This document shows, one piece after another, positions 3,238-12,825 of a stretch of DNA of 21,272 nucleotides (the first letter of the stretch is position 1; each line of letters starts with the position of its first letter). Both the position numbers and the translations under genes were made by a program. Under the pieces are notes generated by a model. That model was given only the letters and a program-made list of their open reading frames with translations, did not search any database and was not told the DNA's origin. The DNA is from a virus (taxonomy: Duplodnaviria > Heunggongvirae > Uroviricota > Caudoviricetes): the IMG/VR virus record IMGVR_UViG_2778261501_000004, positions 1 through 21,272 of that record; one strand, written 5' to 3'.

Positions 3238-3509
3238 GTATTCGTATTGAAATTGGCGAACGTTATGTCGTTACCAGTGACAGCTTTCAGTTTATTCTCC
3301 ACGAGAAAAAGAGAGCGGAAAGCGGTAAAAACGCCGGTCAGGAATGGCTGTCGGTGGTTGGTTATTATCCGAAATTAAGCCAGCTCGTTTCCGGCCTGAT
3401 GCATCACGATATTCTGACCGGAAGCGCAAAGTCTTTTGCTGATTTAAACGCGCAGGTTGAGCAACTCAGCAGGCGTTGTTCAGAGGCTTTTGGCTCATAT
3501 GGCCGTTAA
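3234..3509 (+). CDS. Hypothetical early protein (P2 orf83 position, 91 aa)
   Basis: ATGA overlap with the preceding gene. The 3' end overlaps the start of A. Assigned by synteny. Confidence 0.6.
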   Translation: MSIRIEIGERYVVTSDSFQFILHEKKRAESGKNAGQEWLSVVGYYPKLSQLVSGLMHHDILTGSAKSFADLNAQVEQLSRRCSEAFGSYGR

Positions 3510-5784
3510 AGCCTCCGGGCGTTTTGTCCCTCCGTCAGCATTTGCCGCAGGCACCGGTAAGGCGTTTACCGGTGCTTATGCATGGAACGCGCCACGCGAG
3601 GCTGTCGGGCGCGAAAGACCCCTTACACGTGACGAGATGCGTCAGGTGCAAGGTGTTTTATCCACGATTAACCGCCTGCCTTACTTTTTGCGCTCGCTGT
3701 TTACTTCACGCTATGACTACATCCGGCGCAATAAAAGCCCGGTGCACGGGTTTTATTTCCTCACATCCACTTTTCAGCGTCGTTTATGGCCGCGCATTGA
3801 GCGTGTGAATCAGCGCCATGAAATGAACACCGACGCGTCGTTGCTGTTTCTGGCAGAGCGCGACCAGTATGCGCGCCTGCCGGGGATGAATGACAAGGAG
3901 CTGAAAAAGTTTGCTGCCCGTATCTCATCGCAGCTTTTCATGATGTATGAGGAACTCTGCGATGCCTGGGTTGATGCACATGGCGAAAAAGAATCGCTGT
4001 TTACGGATGAGGCGCAGGCTCACCTCTATGGTCATGTTGCTGGCGCTGCGCGTGCTTTCAATATTTCCCCGCTTTACTGGAAAAAATACCGTAAAGGGCA
4101 GATGACCACGAGGCAGGCATATTCTGCCATTGCCCGCCTGTTTAACGATGAGTGGTGGACTCATCAGCTTAAAGGCCAGCGTATGCGCTGGCATGAGGCG
4201 TTACTGATTGCTGTCGGGGAGGTCAATAAAGACCGTTCTCCTTATGCCAGTAAACATGCCATTCGTGATGTGCGTGCGCGCCGCCAGGCAAATCTGGAAT
4301 TTCTTAAATCGTGTGACCTTGAAAACAAGGAAACCGGCGAGCGCATCGACCTTATCAGTAAGGTGATGGGCAGTATTTCTAATCCTGAAATTCGCCGGAT
4401 GGAGCTGATGAACACCATTGCCGGTATTGAGCGTTACGCCGCCGCAGAGGGTGATGTGGGGATGTTTATCACGCTGACCGCGCCGTCAAAGTATCACCCG
4501 ACACGTCAGGTCAGAAAAGGCGAAAGTAAAACCGTTCAGCTTAATCACGGCTGGAACGATGAGGCATTTAATCCAAAGGATGCGCAGCGTTATCTCTGCC
4601 GCATCTGGAGCCTGATGCGCACGGCATTCAAGGATAATGATTTACAGGTCTACGGTTTGCGTGTCGTCGAGCCACACCACGACGGAACGCCGCACTGGCA
4701 TATGATGCTTTTTTGTAATCCACGCCAGCGTAACCAGATTATCGAAATCATGCGTCGCTACGCGCTCAAAGAGGATGGAGACGAAAGAGGAGCTGCGCGA
4801 AACCGTTTTCAGGCAAAACACCTTAACCGGGGCGGTGCTGCGGGATATATCGCGAAATACATTTCAAAAAACATCGACGGCTATGCACTGGATGGTCAGC
4901 TCGATAACGACACCGGCAGGCCGCTGAAAGACACTGCAGCGGCTGTTACCGCATGGGCGTCAACGTGGCGCATCCCGCAATTTAAAACGGTTGGCCTGCC
5001 GACAATGGGGGCTTACCGTGAACTACGCAAATTGCCGCGCGGCGTCAGCATTGCTGATGAGTTTGACGAGCGCGTCGAGGCTGCACGCGCCGCCGCAGAC
5101 AGTGGTGATTTTGCGTTGTATATCAGCGCGCAGGGTGGGGCAAATGTCCCGCGCGATTGTCAGACTGTCAGGGTTGCCCGTAGCCCGTCGGATGACGTTA
5201 ACGAGTACGAGGAAGAAGTCGAGAGAGTGGTCGGCATTTACGCGCCGCATCTCGGCGCGCGTCATATTCATATCACCAGAACGACGGACTGGCGCATTGT
5301 TCCGAAAGTGCCGGTCGTTGAGCCTTTGACTTTAAAAAGCGGCATCGCCGCGCCTCGGAGTCCTGTCAATAACTGTGGAAAGCTTACCGGCGGTGATACT
5401 TCGTTACCGGCTCCCACACCTTCTGAGCACGTCGCAGCAGTGCTTAATCTGGTTGATGACGGTGTTATCGAATGGAATGACCCGGAGGTCGTGAGGGCGC
5501 TCAGGAGCGCATTAAAATACGGCCTGAGAACCTCAAACCGTCAGCAAAGAAACGGAAGCCCGTTAAAACCGCATGAAATTGCACCATCGGCCAGACTGAC
5601 CCGGTCGGAAAGAATGCAAATTACCCGTATCCGCGTTGACCTTGCTCATAACGGTATCAGGCCGCAGCGATGGGAGCTTGAGGCGCTGGCGCGTGGCGCG
5701 ACCGTAAATTATGACGGGAAAAAATTCACTTATCCGGTCGCTGATGAGTGGCCGGGATTCTCAACAGTAATGGAGTGGAAATGA
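3499..5784 (+). CDS. A: Rolling-circle replication initiator gpA (761 aa, HUH endonuclease)
   Basis: Start is at ATG 3499 (MAVKASGRFVPP...), giving the 761 aa of P2 gpA. The HUH motif is PHWHMMLF and the two-tyrosine motif is YIAKYISK. The upstream 14 codons of the ORF-track call overlap orf83. Confidence 0.95.
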   Translation: MAVKASGRFVPPSAFAAGTGKAFTGAYAWNAPREAVGRERPLTRDEMRQVQGVLSTINRLPYFLRSLFTSRYDYIRRNKSPVHGFYFLTSTFQRRLWPRIERVNQRHEMNTDASLLFLAERDQYARLPGMNDKELKKFAARISSQLFMMYEELCDAWVDAHGEKESLFTDEAQAHLYGHVAGAARAFNISPLYWKKYRKGQMTTRQAYSAIARLFNDEWWTHQLKGQRMRWHEALLIAVGEVNKDRSPYASKHAIRDVRARRQANLEFLKSCDLENKETGERIDLISKVMGSISNPEIRRMELMNTIAGIERYAAAEGDVGMFITLTAPSKYHPTRQVRKGESKTVQLNHGWNDEAFNPKDAQRYLCRIWSLMRTAFKDNDLQVYGLRVVEPHHDGTPHWHMMLFCNPRQRNQIIEIMRRYALKEDGDERGAARNRFQAKHLNRGGAAGYIAKYISKNIDGYALDGQLDNDTGRPLKDTAAAVTAWASTWRIPQFKTVGLPTMGAYRELRKLPRGVSIADEFDERVEAARAAADSGDFALYISAQGGANVPRDCQTVRVARSPSDDVNEYEEEVERVVGIYAPHLGARHIHITRTTDWRIVPKVPVVEPLTLKSGIAAPRSPVNNCGKLTGGDTSLPAPTPSEHVAAVLNLVDDGVIEWNDPEVVRALRSALKYGLRTSNRQQRNGSPLKPHEIAPSARLTRSERMQITRIRVDLAHNGIRPQRWELEALARGATVNYDGKKFTYPVADEWPGFSTVMEWK

Positions 5785-6227
5785 TGGCAAAAATTCACGA
5801 GGTAAAGCTGCACGCCAAATATTTTGACCTTGTGCTGGAAGGAAAGAAACGCGCAGAGTTTCGGAAAAATGACCGTAATTATGAGCGCGGGGACACGTTG
5901 ATTTTGCATGAATGGGTACAGGGTGTGTATACGGGGCGAAAGGTTGAAGCCCGGATAACAGATGTTACTGACCTGTCAGACTGGCTGGAAGATTATGTCT
6001 TGCTAAGTATTGAGCGGCTTAATACAGGCGCATATGAGATTGTGAACTGGAAAGAACTTAGTGAGCGTGGTCTGGTATTCAGAATTAATCATGAAATTAT
6101 GCATCAGCTCGGCCTTGCTGTTATGTATGAGCCGGAGACGGGGCTGTCTGGCGGGGCAGTGGTTACTGCGGATGGGATATGGAACTATTCAGATGAACAG
6201 GTGGAGCGTACAAAGCAAAACGGGTGA
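5781..6227 (+). CDS. ASCH/DUF3850-like protein with a C-terminal extension (about 148 aa)
   Basis: The N-terminus HEVKLHAKYFDLVLEGKKRAEFRKNDRNYERGDTLILHEW fits the ASCH-like DUF3850 pattern as I recall it. The start (5781 or 5784) overlaps the A stop (5782-5784). This is the P2 orf91 position. Confidence 0.6.
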   Translation: MMAKIHEVKLHAKYFDLVLEGKKRAEFRKNDRNYERGDTLILHEWVQGVYTGRKVEARITDVTDLSDWLEDYVLLSIERLNTGAYEIVNWKELSERGLVFRINHEIMHQLGLAVMYEPETGLSGGAVVTADGIWNYSDEQVERTKQNG

Positions 6228-6442
6228 CTTGGATAATGCACAGAATACCAGGCGAGATACCGCACCATAAAACTAAAAATATCAAGCTGATGGCTATTGT
6301 TCAGCGTTTACAGCGGATTATGGTCAACGAAAATCTGACGCCCGATGAGCTGGTCGGGTGTGCCGAAATAGTCCGGGATAATTACGGGCGGTTTAACCAT
6401 ATCGGTCAATCAAGAGTTACGCCACCACCACGCAGACGATAG
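6224..6442 (+). CDS. Small hypothetical protein (72 aa from GTG 6224, or 68 aa from ATG 6236)
   Basis: GTGA overlap with the preceding stop. No motif recognised. It is the last ORF before the AT-rich island. Confidence 0.35.
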   Translation: MTWIMHRIPGEIPHHKTKNIKLMAIVQRLQRIMVNENLTPDELVGCAEIVRDNYGRFNHIGQSRVTPPPRRR

Positions 6443-6663
6443 AGAACGCCGCCAGTCGTGAAACTTGTTTTCAGGGCTGGCGGGGTTGAACAACGAGCGA
6501 AGCGAGGCGTTAGCTAGGCTTTCTATATTGTTTACAATTAAACCTATCCAGAATTAATTGGAATTCAATTTGATCTTTTTCTCGCTACATATGGCCACAA
6601 GTACCAAAACGTGAGAACATCAAAGCTAGGCGAAATCTAGCTTTTCCATAGGAGTTGTTTCGT

Positions 6664-6690
6664 TATAATACGCGGTCGGTTTTTAGGAGG
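6664..6690 (+). promoter_or_regulatory. Candidate -10 element and ribosome-binding site of the methyltransferase gene
   Basis: TATAAT at 6664-6669. AGGAGG at 6685-6690, 5 nt before ATG 6696. No convincing -35 hexamer. Confidence 0.4.
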
Positions 6691-6695
6691 GGTCA

Positions 6696-7634
6696 ATGCC
6701 AACTGTAGTGTCGCTTTTTTCCGGGTGTGGTGGTTCTGATGCAGGAGTCTTGAAGGCTGGGTTTGATGTTCTAATGGCGAATGACATTTTACCTTACGCT
6801 CGTGATGTGTATTTGGCTAACCATCCAGAAACTGATTATGTTTTGGGTGATGTCTCCACTATTGAATCGTTTCCATCTGCTGAACTGCTGGTTGGTTGCT
6901 ATCCCTGTCAAGGTTTTAGCCAAGGTGGAGTTCGAAAAGCTGATAGAAAAATTAATACGCTATACTTAGAGTTTGCAAGAGCTTTAAGAATAGTTAAGCC
7001 AAAAGCGTTCATTGTTGAAAACGTTTCTGGCATGTTGCGAAGTAACTTTGAACATTTGTTGAAAGATCAGTTCAAGGTTTTCGAAGAGGCTGGTTACAGA
7101 GTTAAATCTAAAATTCTAAATGCTTCTCATTTTGGTGTTGCTCAGGATCGTAAGCGCATTTTTATTGTTGGCATACATGAGAGATTTGGAGTTGATTTTT
7201 CGTTTCCAGTCGCGACTCATGGCGAAGGATTGAAAAGAGTGACTACTATCCGTGATGCGATAGGTTCGTTACCGGAATGGCCTGTTGGAGAGTTTTATGA
7301 TGCCGATTTCCATTGGTATTATTTATCAAGAAATCGCCGTCAGGACTGGGATCAAATCTCAAAAACCATAGTTGCTAATCCAAGGCATATGCCTTTACAT
7401 CCAATTAGTCCAACTCTTATAAAGTTAGGTCCAGATAAATGGCAATTTACATCAAATGAACGTGCACGGCGTTTTAGTTTTCGTGAGGCTGCTTATCTTC
7501 AAGGATTTAGTAATTTAGTTTTTCCTGAAACAGAGCGAGCATCCATGAATATGAAATATACAGTTGTCGGAAACGCCGTACCGCCCCCTTTATTCGAAGC
7601 GGTAGCGCGTTCATTACCTGATATTTGGGATTAA
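6696..7634 (+). CDS. DNA (cytosine-5)-methyltransferase, 312 aa, complete motif set
   Basis: Motif I LFSGCGG, motif IV PCQGFS (PCQ encoded at 6903-6911), motif VI ENV, motif VIII QDRKRIF, motif IX RRFSFREAAYLQGF, motif X GNAVPP. A short variable region of about 100 aa lies between motifs VIII and IX. Confidence 0.92.
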   Translation: MPTVVSLFSGCGGSDAGVLKAGFDVLMANDILPYARDVYLANHPETDYVLGDVSTIESFPSAELLVGCYPCQGFSQGGVRKADRKINTLYLEFARALRIVKPKAFIVENVSGMLRSNFEHLLKDQFKVFEEAGYRVKSKILNASHFGVAQDRKRIFIVGIHERFGVDFSFPVATHGEGLKRVTTIRDAIGSLPEWPVGEFYDADFHWYYLSRNRRQDWDQISKTIVANPRHMPLHPISPTLIKLGPDKWQFTSNERARRFSFREAAYLQGFSNLVFPETERASMNMKYTVVGNAVPPPLFEAVARSLPDIWD

Positions 7635-8560
7635 CTCAACACATAATCCATAGCCACTAAGTCATCAACAAACGTTAGATTGTCTTGGTGGTTTATCTGT
7701 GGATATTTTTTAGTCAGATTTACTAGTCTAAGTCTATCAACAAATATTGCAGCACCAAAATCACTCCTGTGAGCCCAGTCGCGGTTATGCCATCTTAAAT
7801 CTTGTGGAAGAAAATAATATGTTGACCATGGATGTAAGACAGGAAGCAAATTCCACAATTTAGCCGGTGTGGCCTCAAGTTGTTTTGCTACCCATTCAGT
7901 TTTTGAACATCCACATTGAGCAAGAGCAAGAGGTATAGACTCACGATTATCTCCCATATCATGCCAAGCGAGTATATCAATTCCTCCATCTCCCCTGTCA
8001 TTTGGTTTGAAATCTTCAATTGAAAAATTAGCTTTACATCTGAAATCTTGTGCTATTTTAGTTAACTTATCAAAGAGTAAGCCAGTGTAGTGACCTGAAT
8101 TACCTGCGCTAGCCCAACAGTGTTTAACTGTTGCTCCTTCAGGCATGAGGGCTTGAAATATGGGATAGCTTATTTTCTCAAATGCACTTGTAAATATGTC
8201 ACGGTGACTATTTTCTATATATTTTATATTTGCACAGGCTAAGAGTGCTATGTATAGTTTTTCATTTTGATTGTAATCAGCAATATTATGCTTTCTTAAG
8301 AATAATGTGTCTCTGTCATCAGAAAAATAAAAGGGGTAATCATCACCGAAAAGGCTAATTCTTGTGTCAATGAATGTCGCTGCAAAATTCCATTTATCGT
8401 CAGAATACCCGCGTGACTTTGGATTTGCTTGAGACCTAAAGAGGCTTGCTAGATCTCCTCTACTAAAGCATTTGTCTGTATTTACTGTAGCCCATAACTC
8501 TAAATAGTCGCCCCATAAATATGGCTCGTTATCGGGTAATGAGTCCATGTGAAAAATCAT
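7631..8560 (-). CDS. Hypothetical protein with an Mrr-like / PD-(D/E)xK-like motif; putative nuclease (309 aa)
   Basis: RGDGGIDILAW...LALAQCGCSK (codons 189-220, nt 7901-7996) resembles the Mrr-cat signature GDGGID...QxK, but with extra residues in the Q..K element. SD GAGGAAG lies upstream. The start overlaps the upstream stop (TAATG). The function is an inference. Confidence 0.6.
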   Translation of the reverse strand: MIFHMDSLPDNEPYLWGDYLELWATVNTDKCFSRGDLASLFRSQANPKSRGYSDDKWNFAATFIDTRISLFGDDYPFYFSDDRDTLFLRKHNIADYNQNEKLYIALLACANIKYIENSHRDIFTSAFEKISYPIFQALMPEGATVKHCWASAGNSGHYTGLLFDKLTKIAQDFRCKANFSIEDFKPNDRGDGGIDILAWHDMGDNRESIPLALAQCGCSKTEWVAKQLEATPAKLWNLLPVLHPWSTYYFLPQDLRWHNRDWAHRSDFGAAIFVDRLRLVNLTKKYPQINHQDNLTFVDDLVAMDYVLS

Positions 8561-9639
8561 TATTCATCTTCCTCACGGATGCTTTCAATTTGTTTTTTAA
8601 TTTTACGCGCTATAGATAATATTTCACTCGAACGATATTCGTGATTTTCTGTGAAAGAGTGCGTGTTGAGAAGCATATCCCAAACAACTCTTAGTCGAGA
8701 TTCTGCTTGGTCTAGAGCTTGATCCAAAGCCTCTTCATGACCATTTGTATATAAATAGGCTTCTTCAATGTTTTTAGACTTTATGAGGTTATCTATTGCT
8801 GCTTCATTGGCAACTATTGTTGAAAGATTTTTGATCTTGCGACTTTCACCAATGATAGTATCACCCTGTTGATCTCTAACAAAGAACCAAGCAAAAAGCT
8901 TCTCAAGGTTTTCCTCTTTCAGGTTTTTAGCAGATAAATCTTTTCTATCATCTAAGCCTAACCAGTCTGTAATGTTAGTATATCCAAGAGCTGTTGTTAT
9001 GTAGGAAAAATCGACATCATTCTCACTCATATGCAAATTATAGAAGTTTTTATCAGCAGCGGTTTCATATAATTTGAGTGAAGTTAATAAAAGGCCGACG
9101 TAATAAGATTTACTGCCAATTTCTTTAGCTAATGACTTTAAAAGAGATTCTTTGTCTGCACCTTTGTAGAAAGTTTCACTAAGCTCCTTAAGATACTTAG
9201 CTTTAGAAAGTGCATCCCATTCTTTCACACCAGTAATGTGTCTATATCCGATATAACGTAACACATCTTCACGTCTTGTGTAGACGAGACAAGGTAATTT
9301 AGTCGGTTTATAAGTAGCATCGTCCTGAATTAGTTGAATGCTTTTTTCTTTTCTTTTAGGTGGTAAAAGTTCGCTATTGAGCAACTTTACGGCAGCAAGG
9401 CGACGGTTACCCTCAACTACAACATATTTTTTCCCGGAACTAACCACTAAAAGAGGTTCTCCGGGAAAGTAATCTTGTTCCCCTATGGACAGCATCAAAT
9501 CTTGTACACTTTCGTCATCAAGCATTTCTTCAATGACGGCATTTTCAGATCCAGCCCTATCGTTTAACCGATAGAAACGTGGGTTTTCAGGATCAAACTC
9601 TAGATCTTCCGTGTTTATGTATTTGATTTCGTTGCTCAT
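8560..9639 (-). CDS. ParB/Srx N-terminal-domain protein (359 aa)
   Basis: LEFDPENPRF plus VVVEGNRRLAAVKLL (GNRR encoded at 9400-9411) matches the ParB-N / sulfiredoxin-fold signature. The remaining ~240 aa are helical-looking with no motif I recognise. There is no obvious SD before ATG 9639. Confidence 0.8.
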   Translation of the reverse strand: MSNEIKYINTEDLEFDPENPRFYRLNDRAGSENAVIEEMLDDESVQDLMLSIGEQDYFPGEPLLVVSSGKKYVVVEGNRRLAAVKLLNSELLPPKRKEKSIQLIQDDATYKPTKLPCLVYTRREDVLRYIGYRHITGVKEWDALSKAKYLKELSETFYKGADKESLLKSLAKEIGSKSYYVGLLLTSLKLYETAADKNFYNLHMSENDVDFSYITTALGYTNITDWLGLDDRKDLSAKNLKEENLEKLFAWFFVRDQQGDTIIGESRKIKNLSTIVANEAAIDNLIKSKNIEEAYLYTNGHEEALDQALDQAESRLRVVWDMLLNTHSFTENHEYRSSEILSIARKIKKQIESIREEDE

Positions 9640-9830
9640 AATTGTATTCTGCGCAGATATAAGGATGACTTGCTACAGCATAACCTTATGTTTAGCATCT
9701 GTCATTATGATGGCTGCCTTATGCATGATTTTGCATCCATTTTTTATTTTATTTTTTTGGGGGCGCATTAGGCCCGATATGGTTTTTGGAGACGATGCGT
9801 TTGCATCAAAACAGCCCCATGAAGCGGGCG

Positions 9831-9849
9831 GGCGAGGCGGGGAAAGCAC
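9831..9849. other. cos cohesive-end sequence (P2 19-nt 5' overhang)
   Basis: GGCGAGGCGGGGAAAGCAC is identical to the P2 cohesive end as I recall it. It sits downstream of Q, exactly as in P2. Confidence 0.8.
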
Positions 9850-9990
9850 TGCGCGCTGGCAGTAGTGCTGATTTTATTTTTTCAGCGTCTGAGCGCGTCG
9901 TGATGGCGTTTAGATTGTGTGCCGGGGCGTTGGTTTGTCTGCGGGCTATTTTGCGCGGAGGTGAGCGTGTGAGGGCGTGATGGCGGGGTG

Positions 9991-10013
9991 TAAAAAAGCC
10001 GCCCGCAGGCGGC
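9991..10013 (-). terminator. Rho-independent terminator downstream of Q
   Basis: Stem GCCGCC (9998-10003) and GGCGGC (10008-10013) with loop CGCA. On the minus strand this is followed by a T6 run (A-run 9992-9997 on the plus strand). Confidence 0.65.
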
Positions 10014-10018
10014 GATGT

Positions 10019-11053
10019 TCAGCCGTTGTCAGTGTCCAGTGAGTAGTTTTTAAAGCGGATGACCTCCTGACCGAGCCAGCCGTTTATCTCGCGGATCCTG
10101 TCCTGTAACGGGATAAGCTCATTGCGGACAAAGACCTTTGCCACTTTCTCAATATCACCCAGCGACCCGACGTTCTCCGGCTTGCCGCCCATCAACTGAA
10201 AGGGGATGCGGTGCGCGTCCAGCAGGTCAGCGGCGCTGGCTTTTTTGATATTAAAAAAATCGTCCTTCGTTGCCACTTCACTGAGCGGGATAATTTTTAT
10301 GCCGTCGGCTTTCCCCTGTGGGGCATAGAGAAACAGATTTTTAAAGTTATTGCGGCCTTTCGACTTAACCATGTTTTCGCGAAGCATTTCGATATCGTTG
10401 CGATCCTGCACGGCATCGGTGACGTACATGATGTATCCGGCATGTGCGCCATTTTCGTAATACTTGCGGCGGAACAGCGTGGCCGACTCATTCAGCCAGG
10501 CAGAATTAAGGGCGCTCAGATATTCCGGCAGGCCGTACAACTCCTGATTGATATCCGGCTCCAGCAGGTGAAACACGGAGCCGGGCGTGAAGGCTGTCGG
10601 CTCGTTGAAGGACGGCACCCACCAGTAAACATCCTCCTCCACGCCACGGCGGGTATATTTTGCCGGTGAGGTTTCCAGTCTGATGACCTTACCGGTGGTG
10701 CTGTAACGCTTTTCCAGAAACGCATTACCGAACACCAGAAAATCCAGCACAAAGCGGCTGAAATCCTGCTGGGAAAGCCACGGATGCGGGATAAATGTCG
10801 AGGCCAGAATATTACGTTTGACGTAAATCGGTGAGCTGTGATGCACGGCAGCACGCAGGCTTTTTGCCAGACCGGTAAAGCTGACCGGTGGCTCATACCA
10901 TCTGCCGTTACTGATGCACTCGACGTAATCCAGAATGTCACGGCGGTCGAGTACCGGCACCGGCTCACCAAAGGTGAATGCCTCCATTTTCGGGGCGCTG
11001 GCGGTCATTGTTTTCACCGCTGGCTGCGGTGTTTTCCCTTTTTTCTTGCTCAT
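10019..11053 (-). CDS. Q: Portal protein gpQ (344 aa)
   Basis: Length and position match P2 Q. ATGA overlap with the P stop at 11053. Confidence 0.93.
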   Translation of the reverse strand: MSKKKGKTPQPAVKTMTASAPKMEAFTFGEPVPVLDRRDILDYVECISNGRWYEPPVSFTGLAKSLRAAVHHSSPIYVKRNILASTFIPHPWLSQQDFSRFVLDFLVFGNAFLEKRYSTTGKVIRLETSPAKYTRRGVEEDVYWWVPSFNEPTAFTPGSVFHLLEPDINQELYGLPEYLSALNSAWLNESATLFRRKYYENGAHAGYIMYVTDAVQDRNDIEMLRENMVKSKGRNNFKNLFLYAPQGKADGIKIIPLSEVATKDDFFNIKKASAADLLDAHRIPFQLMGGKPENVGSLGDIEKVAKVFVRNELIPLQDRIREINGWLGQEVIRFKNYSLDTDNG

Positions 11054-12825
11054 CAGTAAAACTCCAGAATGGTGGATGTCAGCGGGGTGCTGATACCGGC
11101 GGTGAGTGGCTCATTTAACAGGGCGTGCATGGTCGCCCAGGCGAGGTCGGCGTGGCTGGCTTCCTCGCTGCGGCTGGCCTCATAGGTGGCGCTGCGTCCG
11201 CTGCTGGTCATGGTCTTGCGGATAGCCATAAACGAGCTGGTGATGTCGGTGGCGCTGACGTCATATTCCAGACAGCCACGGCGGATGACGTCTTTTGCCT
11301 TGAGCACCATTGCGGTTTTCATTTCTGGTGTGTAGCGGATATCGCGCGCGGCGGGATAGAACGAGCGCACGAGCTGGAACACGCCGACACCGAGGCCGGT
11401 GGCATCAATACCGATGTATTCGACGTTATATTTTTCGGTGAGTTTGCGGATGGATTCCGCCTGGGTGGCAAAGTCCATGCCTTTCCACTGGTGACGCTCA
11501 AGTATTCTGAATTTGCCACCGGCCACCACCGGCGGTGCCAGCACCACACATCCGGCACTGTCGCCACGGTGTGACGGGTCGTAACCAATCCATACCGGAC
11601 GGGAGCCGAACGGATTCGCGGCAAACGGCGCATAGTCTTCCCATTCTTCCAGCGTGTCGACCATGCAGCGTTGCAGCTCCTCGAACGGGAACACCGACGC
11701 CTTGTCGTCAACAAATTCACACATGAACAGGTTTTTAAAATCGTCGGCGCTGTTTTCGCGTTTGAGCTGCTCAATGTCGAACAGCGTGCAGCCACCTTTC
11801 AGGGCGTCCTCAATGGTGACAATCTGTCGCCACTGGCCGTCCGCACAGAGAAGCCCACCGGCAAGGGCGTTATGACTGACGTCGATTTCCACGCGTTCGG
11901 CGGCGCTGGCGCGTCCCCGGTTATACAGTTCACCCGACCAGAACGGGTAGGCGTCGTGCGCCAGCGTGGACGGGGTGGAGAAATAGGTCGAACGCAGGTG
12001 ACTCTGTGAGGCCATACCTGATGCCACCTTACGCAGTACCTGAAAATTCGGGATCCAGAAAATCTCGTCGACGTACAGGTCGCCGTTATGGCTCTGCGCG
12101 GTGTTGGAGTTGGTGCCGAGAAAAATCAGTTTTGCGCCGTTATTGCCCAGGACAATCGGGTCACCGGTCAGGTCAACGTCAACCAGACGGGCAAAGGCGA
12201 TGATGTATTCGCGGAACACATACGCCTGCGTTTTACTGGCCGACAGAAAAATCTGGTTATGACCGGTTTTCAGGGCGCGCAGCAGCGCCTCGCGGGAAAA
12301 ATAAAATGTCGCGCCAATCTGGCGGGATTTCAGGATATCGCGGATGCGGTGCTCAAGCCCGGCGCGATACCAGTGCAACTGATAGTCGAAAGACTGCTCA
12401 AAGAAAATCTGCTCCAGCTTTTCGATGGCCTCGTCACTGAAAAAATTCTTTTTCGGTTTGCGCCGCCCGCCTTTGTTGCGGTTAGCGACGTTCGGATTAA
12501 GGTCTGCCTCGTTGCCGGTCTGGCTGTAGCGATTTACCCGTGCCAGTCGTTCAATCTGGCGTCCCAGCAGGTCAATTTCCTTGAAGTCACCGCCGGTTTT
12601 CTGCGGTTTGATGATGAGCTGGGTCAGCCGCGCTTCCAGGCTCATTTCGACACGGCTGATGGGGGCAACGCTGTCCCAGCCGTCGCGCTGTTTCCAGCTC
12701 TGCACCGTCGGGCGTTTCATCTGCAACATGGCGGCAATCTGCGGCACGGAAAACCCCTGCCAGTACAGCAGCGCCGCCTGACGACGCGGGTCGTGTAAAA
12801 GAGTGGTGTCTGTGGTGATGGTCAT
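11053..12825 (-). CDS. P: Terminase large (ATPase) subunit gpP (590 aa)
   Basis: Start is at ATG 12825 (MTITTDTTLLHDPRRQ...), giving the P2 length of 590 aa. Terminase Walker-A-like LKSRQIGAT. The ORF-track start 12876 adds 17 unsupported codons. Confidence 0.93.
   Translation of the reverse strand: MTITTDTTLLHDPRRQAALLYWQGFSVPQIAAMLQMKRPTVQSWKQRDGWDSVAPISRVEMSLEARLTQLIIKPQKTGGDFKEIDLLGRQIERLARVNRYSQTGNEADLNPNVANRNKGGRRKPKKNFFSDEAIEKLEQIFFEQSFDYQLHWYRAGLEHRIRDILKSRQIGATFYFSREALLRALKTGHNQIFLSASKTQAYVFREYIIAFARLVDVDLTGDPIVLGNNGAKLIFLGTNSNTAQSHNGDLYVDEIFWIPNFQVLRKVASGMASQSHLRSTYFSTPSTLAHDAYPFWSGELYNRGRASAAERVEIDVSHNALAGGLLCADGQWRQIVTIEDALKGGCTLFDIEQLKRENSADDFKNLFMCEFVDDKASVFPFEELQRCMVDTLEEWEDYAPFAANPFGSRPVWIGYDPSHRGDSAGCVVLAPPVVAGGKFRILERHQWKGMDFATQAESIRKLTEKYNVEYIGIDATGLGVGVFQLVRSFYPAARDIRYTPEMKTAMVLKAKDVIRRGCLEYDVSATDITSSFMAIRKTMTSSGRSATYEASRSEEASHADLAWATMHALLNEPLTAGISTPLTSTILEFY

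Follow-up and report, generated by a model that had tools for sequence, protein, structure and literature searches.

The 21,272-nucleotide stretch analysed here (positions 1 to 21,272 of the IMG/VR caudoviricete record IMGVR_UViG_2778261501_000004; hereafter the window) covers the left portion of a P2-like prophage and carries, next to cos, a cassette of three genes encoding a C5-cytosine methyltransferase (MTase), a ParB-like protein and a third protein that we call the partner. On balance, and with guarded confidence, we favour the view that the cassette is a restriction-modification (R-M)-like defence module whose restriction part is a two-protein, probably nucleoside triphosphate (NTP)-gated, complex of the ParB-like protein and a nuclease; it is most probably an R-M variant with a ParB-fold switch subunit. 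The module is carried as moron cargo in the P2 hotspot; it represents a rare allele within a three-gene family that is widespread and catalogued but has no characterised function. A preliminary description, made from the letters of this DNA, had reported three open reading frames (ORFs), and all of them are present and intact:

6696-7634, plus strand: C5-MTase of 312 residues, with the catalytic Cys71 in a PCQ motif; PF00145 over the full length.
7631-8560, minus strand: partner protein of 309 residues, with a winged helix and a PD-(D/E)xK-like domain according to structure prediction; putative nuclease subunit.
8560-9639, minus strand: ParB-like protein of 359 residues, with an N-terminal domain of the ParB/Srx NTPase fold, a central helix-turn-helix (HTH)-like domain and long C-terminal helices.

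Homologues are plentiful for the partner (175) and the ParB-like protein (2602), and by an exhaustive profile search the partner family extends to 1476 clusters at 50% identity, of which 434 have E ≤ 1e-30; the ORFs are therefore real and conserved rather than products of chance.

The MTase is complete, as had been claimed. It matches PF00145 along its whole length (Pfam, E = 2.9e-60), scores 187 bits against TIGR00675 (NCBIfam, cut-off 100.65) and contains all canonical C5 motifs (FSGCGG, PC71Q, E108NV, QDRKR and GNAVPP). M.HaeIII (1dct) matches residues 4-307 with E = 3e-46, target-recognition region included, and the two enzymes have in common the pattern SRNR..W...T(I/V).A..R...LHP. From these target-recognition residues, the specificity is possibly GGCC-like; the numbers of GGCC, CCGG and GCGC sites that the window contains are no guide here. 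The MTase gene converges on that of the partner, the two stop codons overlapping at 7631-7634, so that, as in classical Type II R-M systems, an active-looking cognate MTase adjoins the nuclease gene. The MTase alone also matches the DruM models of Druantia II (E = 4e-105), an assignment that we rejected because the region from gpA to cos encodes no large helicase of the DruE type.

The partner matches no model in Pfam-A, NCBIfam or PADLOC-DB v2 and no PDB sequence; in PHROGs it belongs to phrog_3984, for which no function is given. Since a sequence-profile search of the PDB gave nothing for the partner and only marginal ParB matches (E = 0.006) for the ParB-like protein, comparison at the level of the fold was needed. 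The N-terminal 60-80 residues or so of the partner match winged-helix proteins, and two independent methods assign the C-terminal domain to the restriction-endonuclease-like PD-(D/E)xK fold, of MspJI/NgoMIV-like type. The two best structural matches are MspJI and AspBHI, both modification-dependent enzymes; NgoMIV, Cfr10I, Bse634I, AgeI, BsaWI and EcoT38I follow, and promiscuous nucleases of the NucC and Card1/Can2 types match more weakly. Residues that are invariant in the family include E128, K165, D172, G190-D191-G192-G193, D195, D204, Q215, G217, C218, S219 and K226, among others; E128, D191, D195, Q215 and K226 map to the predicted first core helix, to positions just ahead of the central strands and at their ends, and to the helix that follows. 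The partner had been called Mrr-like, which is right at the level of the predicted fold; the lysine of the proposed "Q..K" motif (K220), however, is variable (K/R/Q).

For the ParB-like protein, Pfam gives a single match at E ≤ 0.1, to ParB_N, which at E = 0.0045 falls below the cut-off. The earlier ParB assignment is thus weak by Pfam but firm by PADLOC, PHROGs and structure. Twenty-four PADLOC hidden Markov models of PD-Lambda-5_A match residues ~1-152 (best E = 1e-24), PADLOC PDC-M38A matches residues 42-348 (E = 2e-25), and the protein is a member of phrog_3694 (no function given in PHROGs). Searching with the AlphaFold2 model (predicted local distance difference test score 89), Foldseek finds ParB in its cytidine triphosphate (CTP)-bound form (7bnk, E = 3e-7), KorB (8qa8/8qa9), Noc and Spo0J over about 250 columns, an alignment that takes in both the NTPase domain and the HTH region; the C-terminal third consists of long helices. 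The stretch E76-G-N-R79-R80-L-A-A is invariant in the family and resembles the phosphate-binding GxRR of Box II, and the profile aligns VVEGNRRLAAV with the ParB box I(A/V)GERR(L/F)RA (GERRxRA; Spo0J), so that the protein has the N-domain with a GERRxRA-type box that is canonical for ParB. The TAA stop codon of its gene overlaps the ATG of the partner gene (TAATG, 8558-8562). This suggests translational coupling, and so, probably, stoichiometric co-production of the two proteins.

The linkage of the three genes is conserved across phyla. A pattern scan for partner homologues, with one genome per species, gave 35 loci (numbered with the prefix L) from Gamma-, Beta- and Alphaproteobacteria, Bacteroidota and Planctomycetota. 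The gene for a ParB-like protein lies immediately upstream of the partner gene in 34 of the 35, the remaining locus being ended by a contig edge. The earlier proposal of an arrangement that is R-M-like yet outside the classical Type I-IV layouts is upheld. A C5-MTase is found in the flank of 34 of the 35. In 26 loci it belongs to the orthologous lineage (61-94% identity) and is convergent and adjacent; in L044, L046 and L049 it is another C5 enzyme in another orientation. Gene order varies while linkage stays: the MTase gene can converge on the pair or lie in tandem with it, upstream in L046 and downstream in L044, L051 and L052, and more distant members form co-directional operons of ParB-like protein, partner, C5-MTase and Vsr. 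Vsr, the nuclease of 5-methylcytosine (5mC) deamination repair that is typical of C5 R-M systems, accompanies the trio or the pair in L013, L046, L051 and L052. Beyond phages, the pair is present in Proteobacteria, Bacteroidota and Planctomycetota; the trio stands in an ordinary chromosomal, non-phage context in Methylotenera and Sulfurimicrobium, and neighbours are of the defence-island kind (PIN-MazE, a Type IIG enzyme, a NotI-like R-M system, and a HerA-like ATPase with an HNH protein). In Salinibius halmophilus (L048:4680-10588, NZ_QPEP01000003), the pair (ParB-like 34% and partner 27% identical to those of the window) has no C5-MTase nearby and instead converges on DndE, a DndD-like structural-maintenance-of-chromosomes ATPase and a DndC-like phosphoadenosine-phosphosulphate reductase; this suggests that the pair can couple to phosphorothioation in place of 5mC. 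Upstream of the Salinibius pair lie genes for a 1254-residue HerA/FtsK-like ATPase and an HNH protein. In an Erythrobacteraceae metagenome-assembled genome (L047:6757-8817), a NotI-like restriction endonuclease and a C5-MTase are encoded directly downstream of the pair, which may share or borrow the MTase of this neighbouring classical R-M system. Four loci (L031, L034, L035 and L036, from Variovorax, Hydrogenophaga, Rhizobium sp. and Pelomonas; ~6900-11300) have an ORF of ~1040 residues between the partner and a C5-MTase that is 38-40% identical (tblastn); the ~1040-residue protein of L031, when scanned, proved Type IIG-like, with N6_Mtase and Eco57I domains.

The preliminary description had proposed looking for the trio in the same slot of other P2-like prophages, and it is present in phage Wφ and in prophages of enterohaemorrhagic Escherichia coli O145; a trio with the MTase lineage of the window is carried by 141 of 5426 complete E. 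coli genomes (~2.6%). The exact cassette occurs in one of the 5426 (PSS-08-2, 99.8%), and the other 140 comprise ~104 with a Wφ-type pair and 36 with an O145-type pair. The pair of the window is therefore a rare variant; the cassette is also present in Intestinirhabdus alba at 92-95% amino acid identity. In Wφ, mth, orf96 and orf98 form the homologous trio in identical slot and order (mth 77% identical in nucleotides, partner 48% and ParB-like protein 65% in amino acids). In the O145 prophages, the MTase is 85% identical in amino acids, the ParB-like protein 30% and the partner 26%, with GDGGxDI and QCG retained. One O145-type copy, in E. coli GF47 (H32; NZ_CP172169.1, 3223-7036), is split into two matching segments, the span including an annotated IS1A transposase, and appears to have been disrupted by IS1.

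Across the enteric P2-like prophages (the window compared with L003, L005, L009, L015, L016 and L002), identities are 85-94% for the MTase, 30-95% for the ParB-like protein and 26-92% for the partner; in Beta- and Gammaproteobacterial loci, the MTase is 61-74% identical. One near-constant MTase lineage thus goes with at least four very divergent pairs, and the phylogenies of MTase and pair are consequently discordant. Either the pairs are isoschizomeric or their recognition is not tied to the MTase site. The simplest explanation is that arms-race selection has favoured replacement by isoschizomers, and an MTase better conserved than the pair is the usual pattern of slow M and fast R; the more interesting alternative is that the pair recognises methylation state rather than sequence, which the dnd-linked member fits. 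The ParB-like protein is better conserved than the partner nuclease. Their divergences correlate (Pearson r = 0.94), which weighs little as evidence of interaction because all three genes correlate through their common phylogeny.

We suggest the following mechanism. The C5-MTase would mark self by methylating a short, possibly GGCC-like, site on host and prophage DNA. The ParB-like and partner proteins, co-translated from the minus strand, would form the restriction component: the ParB/KorB-like protein would bind DNA through its HTH region, use its ParB-fold nucleotide (CTP/NTP) switch to engage or travel on DNA, and recruit or license the winged-helix PD-(D/E)xK partner, which would cleave DNA without the methyl mark, such as entering phage or plasmid DNA. 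The proposal predicts a complex of the two proteins, dependence on NTP and an anti-phage phenotype. We read the cassette as R-M-like because the linkage survives rearrangement, Vsr is associated, the neighbours are those of defence islands, the partner has the predicted fold of a restriction enzyme and the slot is an established hotspot. The ParB-like protein is more likely to be a functional restriction subunit, acting as a DNA-binding nucleotide switch in the manner of McrB beside McrC or H.CglI beside R.CglI, than a mere regulator, since it is kept in every informative locus, is better conserved than the nuclease and has its phosphate-binding box intact, and since no cassette-specific operator was found upstream of it. 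A bolder version, possible but in our judgement doubtful, is that a ParB-type CTP/NTP-gated clamp loads at unmodified sites, slides, and delivers or activates the PD-(D/E)xK nuclease. This would be the first restriction enzyme built on a ParB switch, and the pair would be a portable reader-effector serving unrelated C5-MTases as well as the phosphorothioation of Salinibius.

Several observations weigh against an R-M-like module with a two-protein nuclease. The partner has glycine at the canonical (D/E)xK lysine position (Q215-C-G217), and because G217 replaces the usual lysine, catalysis would need another one, such as K226. No fusion of the ParB-like protein to the partner, or of the partner to any other domain, occurs among the best 150 of the 1476 cluster representatives, all of which are standalone proteins of 170-380 residues, so that a physical interaction has no Rosetta-stone backing. 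L047 and L048 lack a cognate MTase, and in L031 and L034-L036 the C5-MTase is 3 kb away, beyond a Type IIG gene. The association of at least four very divergent pairs with one near-constant MTase belongs here too, as does the lack of any match between the partner and a model of PADLOC, Pfam or NCBIfam.

The location of the cassette agrees with the claim that it occupies the P2 tin/old hotspot. The window runs from the integrase (1-1011) through gpA to cos and the portal, terminase and capsid genes, and the slot that holds the three intact genes, bounded by the orf91-like gene and a 72-residue ORF on the left and by cos on the right, is the position of tin and old in the P2 annotation. The features of the backbone and junctions are:

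1-1011: integrase; P2-like prophage backbone.
3457-5784: P2 gpA; left flank.
5748-6227: orf91-like gene, DUF3850/ASCH; left flank.
6224-6442: 72-residue ORF between the orf91-like gene and the cargo.
6515-6695, plus strand: left end of the cargo and region upstream of the MTase, where the sequence, read directly, shows TATAAT without mismatch at 6664-6669 and the ribosome-binding site AGGAGG at 6685-6690.
9677-9705, minus strand: promoter-like site ATGACA-17-TATGCT upstream of the ParB-like gene, from a consensus scan.
9722-9849, unstranded: right junction, P2 cos-proximal backbone as judged by alignment to the P2, Wφ and O145-prophage right ends.
9831-9849: cos 19-mer GGCGAGGCGGGGAAAGCAC, the same letters as the annotated P2 cosR.
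10019-11053, minus strand: portal gpQ; right flank, with terminase gpP.

We place the left edge of the cargo at about 6515, because 6443-6514 (query bases 1-71/72) is 98-100% identical to cassette-free P2-like phages and similarity ends there, and the right edge at about 9722, where likeness to the P2 right end starts again. A foreign composition had been claimed, and it holds: the cargo (6515-9722) has 38.1% G+C, its genes 36.6-40.6% and the remaining window 53.3%. The terminase line of 67% that had served as the contrast is unrepresentative, as the flanks have 50-62%. The P2 slot is a defence hotspot by experiment in two laboratories (PMC9122126, PMC9519451).

Some details of these flanks may be recorded. 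A 19-nucleotide inverted repeat (AACGCCGCCAGTCGTGAAA / TTTCAGGGCTGGCGGGGTT) at 6445-6487, directly after the 72-residue ORF and before the cargo junction, is likely to be an early-operon terminator that would insulate the MTase. The orf91-like protein (5748-6227) has 159 residues, with DUF3850/ASCH and a C-terminal DUF7415 domain; orf91 encodes 109 residues in P2 (330 nucleotides) and 93 in Wφ (282 nucleotides). With its GTG start, the orf91-like ORF shares 37 bases (5748-5784) with the 3' end of gpA, an overlap that disappears with the shorter start chosen by RefSeq in the near-identical PSS-08-2 record. Fusions of ParB-CTPase to DUF3850 are phage-enriched in a recent survey (PMC12704722).

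A rival reading makes the ParB-like protein a regulator of its neighbour. An ordinary Type II R-M system, in which the 309-residue protein is the sole sequence-specific restriction endonuclease and the ParB/KorB-like protein a transcriptional controller that delays the nuclease in a new cell (a large counterpart of a C protein or of KorB, a repressor that depends on CTP), would account for the size and fold of the partner, which are those of Type IIP enzymes (NgoMIV, Cfr10I, Bse634I, AgeI, BsaWI, EcoT38I), and for the structural match of the ParB-like protein to KorB, one of its best. In C-protein systems, moreover, the controller gene typically lies directly upstream of the R gene and overlaps it. 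Against this, no conserved operator specific to the cassette was found upstream. The candidate promoter at 9677-9705 would correspond, in its position relative to cos, to the start of the P2 old-tin transcripts (33424/33426, ~168 bp from the P2 right end); the consensus scan gave no excess over shuffled sequence for this site. A TGCAT-N5-TGCAT repeat lies at 9723-9737, with a related repeat 70 bp off at 9795-9807 (ATGATTTTGCATC / ATGCGTTTGCATC); both recur in P2, Wφ and O145 prophages, close to cos on its inner side and ahead of any cargo, and probably belong to the P2 backbone as elements of its cos/packaging or old-promoter region. We had considered ATGCA-N5-ATGCA(T) as a conserved operator of the ParB-like gene, as it seemed to be kept even between cassettes only 30% identical. 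We rejected this because the repeat stands in P2 before old and is absent from all non-phage loci, and so belongs to the P2 cos-proximal backbone and not to the cassette. The ParB-like gene is, furthermore, kept in 34 of 34 informative loci from three phyla and better conserved than the nuclease, and a 359-residue NTPase with an invariant GxRR exceeds the machinery of known controllers. A single-protein restriction endonuclease also sits badly with the obligate ParB-like neighbour (34 of 35 loci) and the start/stop overlap, as far as gene arrangement can tell. We therefore regard the ordinary Type II system as unlikely, though it merits attention.

The closest validated relative of the cassette is PD-λ-5, described as "ParB/HEPN, methyltransferase", which gives broad phage protection (Vassallo et al. 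2022, PMC9519451) and whose cloning required an mrr-deleted host (PMC9519451). Both are prophage-borne, combine an MTase with a ParB N-domain of one family (PD-Lambda-5_A, E = 1e-24) and follow an R-M-like logic. The earlier statement that no named defence system could be recognised thus needs correcting, a named and validated one being partly related; the partner has no PADLOC model. Membership of PD-λ-5 was rejected, as the cassette differs in three of the four features compared, the ParB N-domain being the one in common. In PD-λ-5 there are two genes and in the window three conserved ones; PD-λ-5A carries a C-terminal HEPN/DUF4145-like effector within one polypeptide of ~430-500 residues, whereas the window encodes as its putative effector a separate winged-helix and PD-(D/E)xK protein; and PD-λ-5B is a D12-class (Dam-like) N6-adenine MTase (MethyltransfD12, 99.9% probability in HHpred), whereas that of the window is a C5 enzyme (PF00145). 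The PD-Lambda-5_A alignments end at model position ~160 of 428-508, and the C-terminal 200 residues of the ParB-like protein, unmatched by those models, contain no Rx4-6H motif.

This relationship raises a sensor-effector scheme of the kind proposed by the PD-λ-5 authors ("RM+Abi", with abortive infection), in which the ParB-like protein would sense a sign of phage (foreign DNA, for instance, or an anti-restriction factor) and free the nuclease on any DNA, so that the cell is killed or arrested and the MTase is secondary or modulating. Membership of the ParB N-domain in the PD-Lambda-5_A family, the weaker fold matches of the partner to promiscuous nucleases (NucC, Card1/Can2) and the tolerance of one MTase for divergent pairs are all in keeping with it. 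The HEPN-like C-terminal effector of PD-λ-5A is nevertheless missing (the alignment stops at about residue 152; the models behind the listed matches that end there are 428-508 positions long), and a linkage to C5-MTase and Vsr that is near-obligate is to be expected of a nuclease that discriminates by modification. We consider such a scheme quite improbable here. That ParB-fold, MTase and effector genes go together is a theme already known, since operons of ParB, DNA methylase and HEPN (MAE_28990) were noted by Anantharaman et al. (2013).

ParB-fold NTPases of the DUF262 branch (GmrSD, SspE, Menshen NsnA and PD-T4-2) and DndB also tie a switch to a nuclease effector and to the modification status of DNA (PMC12065111, PMC12373910). 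The protein of the window differs in having a ParB-type GxRR box and a ParB/KorB/Noc-like HTH, with no Pfam match to DUF262 or DndB. The nuclease of GmrSD-type systems is HNH/DUF1524, which the partner is not; with no Pfam match to DUF262 or HNH/DUF1524 from either minus-strand protein, we rejected GmrSD, SspE and Menshen as homes for the cassette. A Type IV-like arrangement might still be imagined, with the pair a modification-dependent nuclease that attacks foreign modified DNA and the MTase a co-resident phage orphan that shields P2 DNA from host R-M. MspJI and AspBHI, the Mrr-like enzymes that with those of NgoMIV/Cfr10I type best match the catalytic domain, are modification-dependent, ParB-fold NTPases do occur in Type IV GmrSD and in SspE (PMC12373910, PMC12065111), and one locus joins the pair to dndCDE. 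The N-terminal part of the partner, however, matches winged-helix proteins rather than an SRA-like 5mC reader, and the ParB-like protein has no Pfam match to DUF262. The inheritance of a C5-MTase in 34 of 35 loci and in several gene orders would go unexplained, and would be dangerous were the nuclease to read 5mC. On the grounds of the winged-helix matches and this linkage, we rejected an MspJI-type modification-dependent endonuclease, and we judge the Type IV-like arrangement to be very improbable.

Restriction enzymes with a separate NTPase subunit offer parallels. McrBC consists of a DNA-binding NTPase subunit and a separate PD-(D/E)xK nuclease subunit, joined in LlaJI and BsuMI to C5-MTases; McrB is an AAA+ GTPase and not of the ParB fold, and in our searches the ParB-like protein and the partner matched McrB or McrC neither in sequence nor in fold. 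The nuclease of CglI and NgoAVII is a PLD-family enzyme with a B3-like domain, whereas that of the window is predicted to be PD-(D/E)xK. CglI and NgoAVII are nonetheless three-gene precedents, with C5-MTase, nuclease and NTPase, in which cleavage requires both proteins and nucleotide hydrolysis (PMC4267653). Their NTPase is a DEAD/superfamily 2 helicase-like motor (PMC4267653) and that of the window a ParB fold, so that H.CglI with R.CglI is a parallel by analogy and not by homology.

ParB-fold proteins are classically segregation factors, and putative partition systems in the hotspot have been noted by Rousset et al. One could accordingly envisage that the ParB-like protein and the nuclease act in the DNA metabolism of the phage, in partition, maintenance or cos-proximal recombination for example, and that the MTase acts in epigenetic regulation. 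The partition system in the Rousset table is, however, another cargo (StbA with Plasmid_stab_B). A partition ParB of ParABS type was rejected for the window: TIGR00180 scores 26.7 bits against a cut-off of 58.45, and no ParA is encoded in the window or in the loci examined. Chromosomal islands outside phages hold the trio together with Vsr and further genes of defence, and no match occurs across the 72,556 plasmids of PLSDB. To a role outside defence we give hardly any credence.

The preliminary description called the cassette a candidate for an undescribed system. As to function this is upheld, since we came upon no description of the system in papers or model libraries, and literature searches for a ParB, C5-MTase and nuclease system, for PDC-M38 and for Wφ orf96 found no functional description; as to the genes it is not, for the Wφ trio was sequenced about 2003 and "DNA_methylase + hypothetical + ParBc" occurs many times, without discussion, in Table S5A of Rousset et al. 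2022. Neither ParB nor methylase is mentioned in the main text of that paper or in its other supplementary files examined, and both the Wφ trio and the Rousset entries are annotation or catalogue records without an assigned function. For a PD-(D/E)xK version of the ParB, MTase and effector theme, we found no description in the literature searched.

If confirmed, the cassette would represent a new R-M architecture in which a ParB-fold nucleotide switch replaces a helicase or AAA+ motor, one foreshadowed thematically by PD-λ-5 and by NTP-dependent multi-subunit restriction enzymes. The lately recognised range of the ParB-CTPase fold would then reach restriction, and there would be a mechanistic handle on PD-λ-5, which is validated but unexplained. 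The family, with 1476 clusters at 50% identity, is large; it occurs in several phyla and, within E. coli, in ~2.6% of complete genomes. As no PADLOC-DB v2, Pfam-A or NCBIfam model matches the partner, counts of the defence systems in P2-like prophages fall short. A near-constant MTase that goes with nuclease pairs of such divergence provides a natural experiment on how restriction diversifies under a fixed self-mark.

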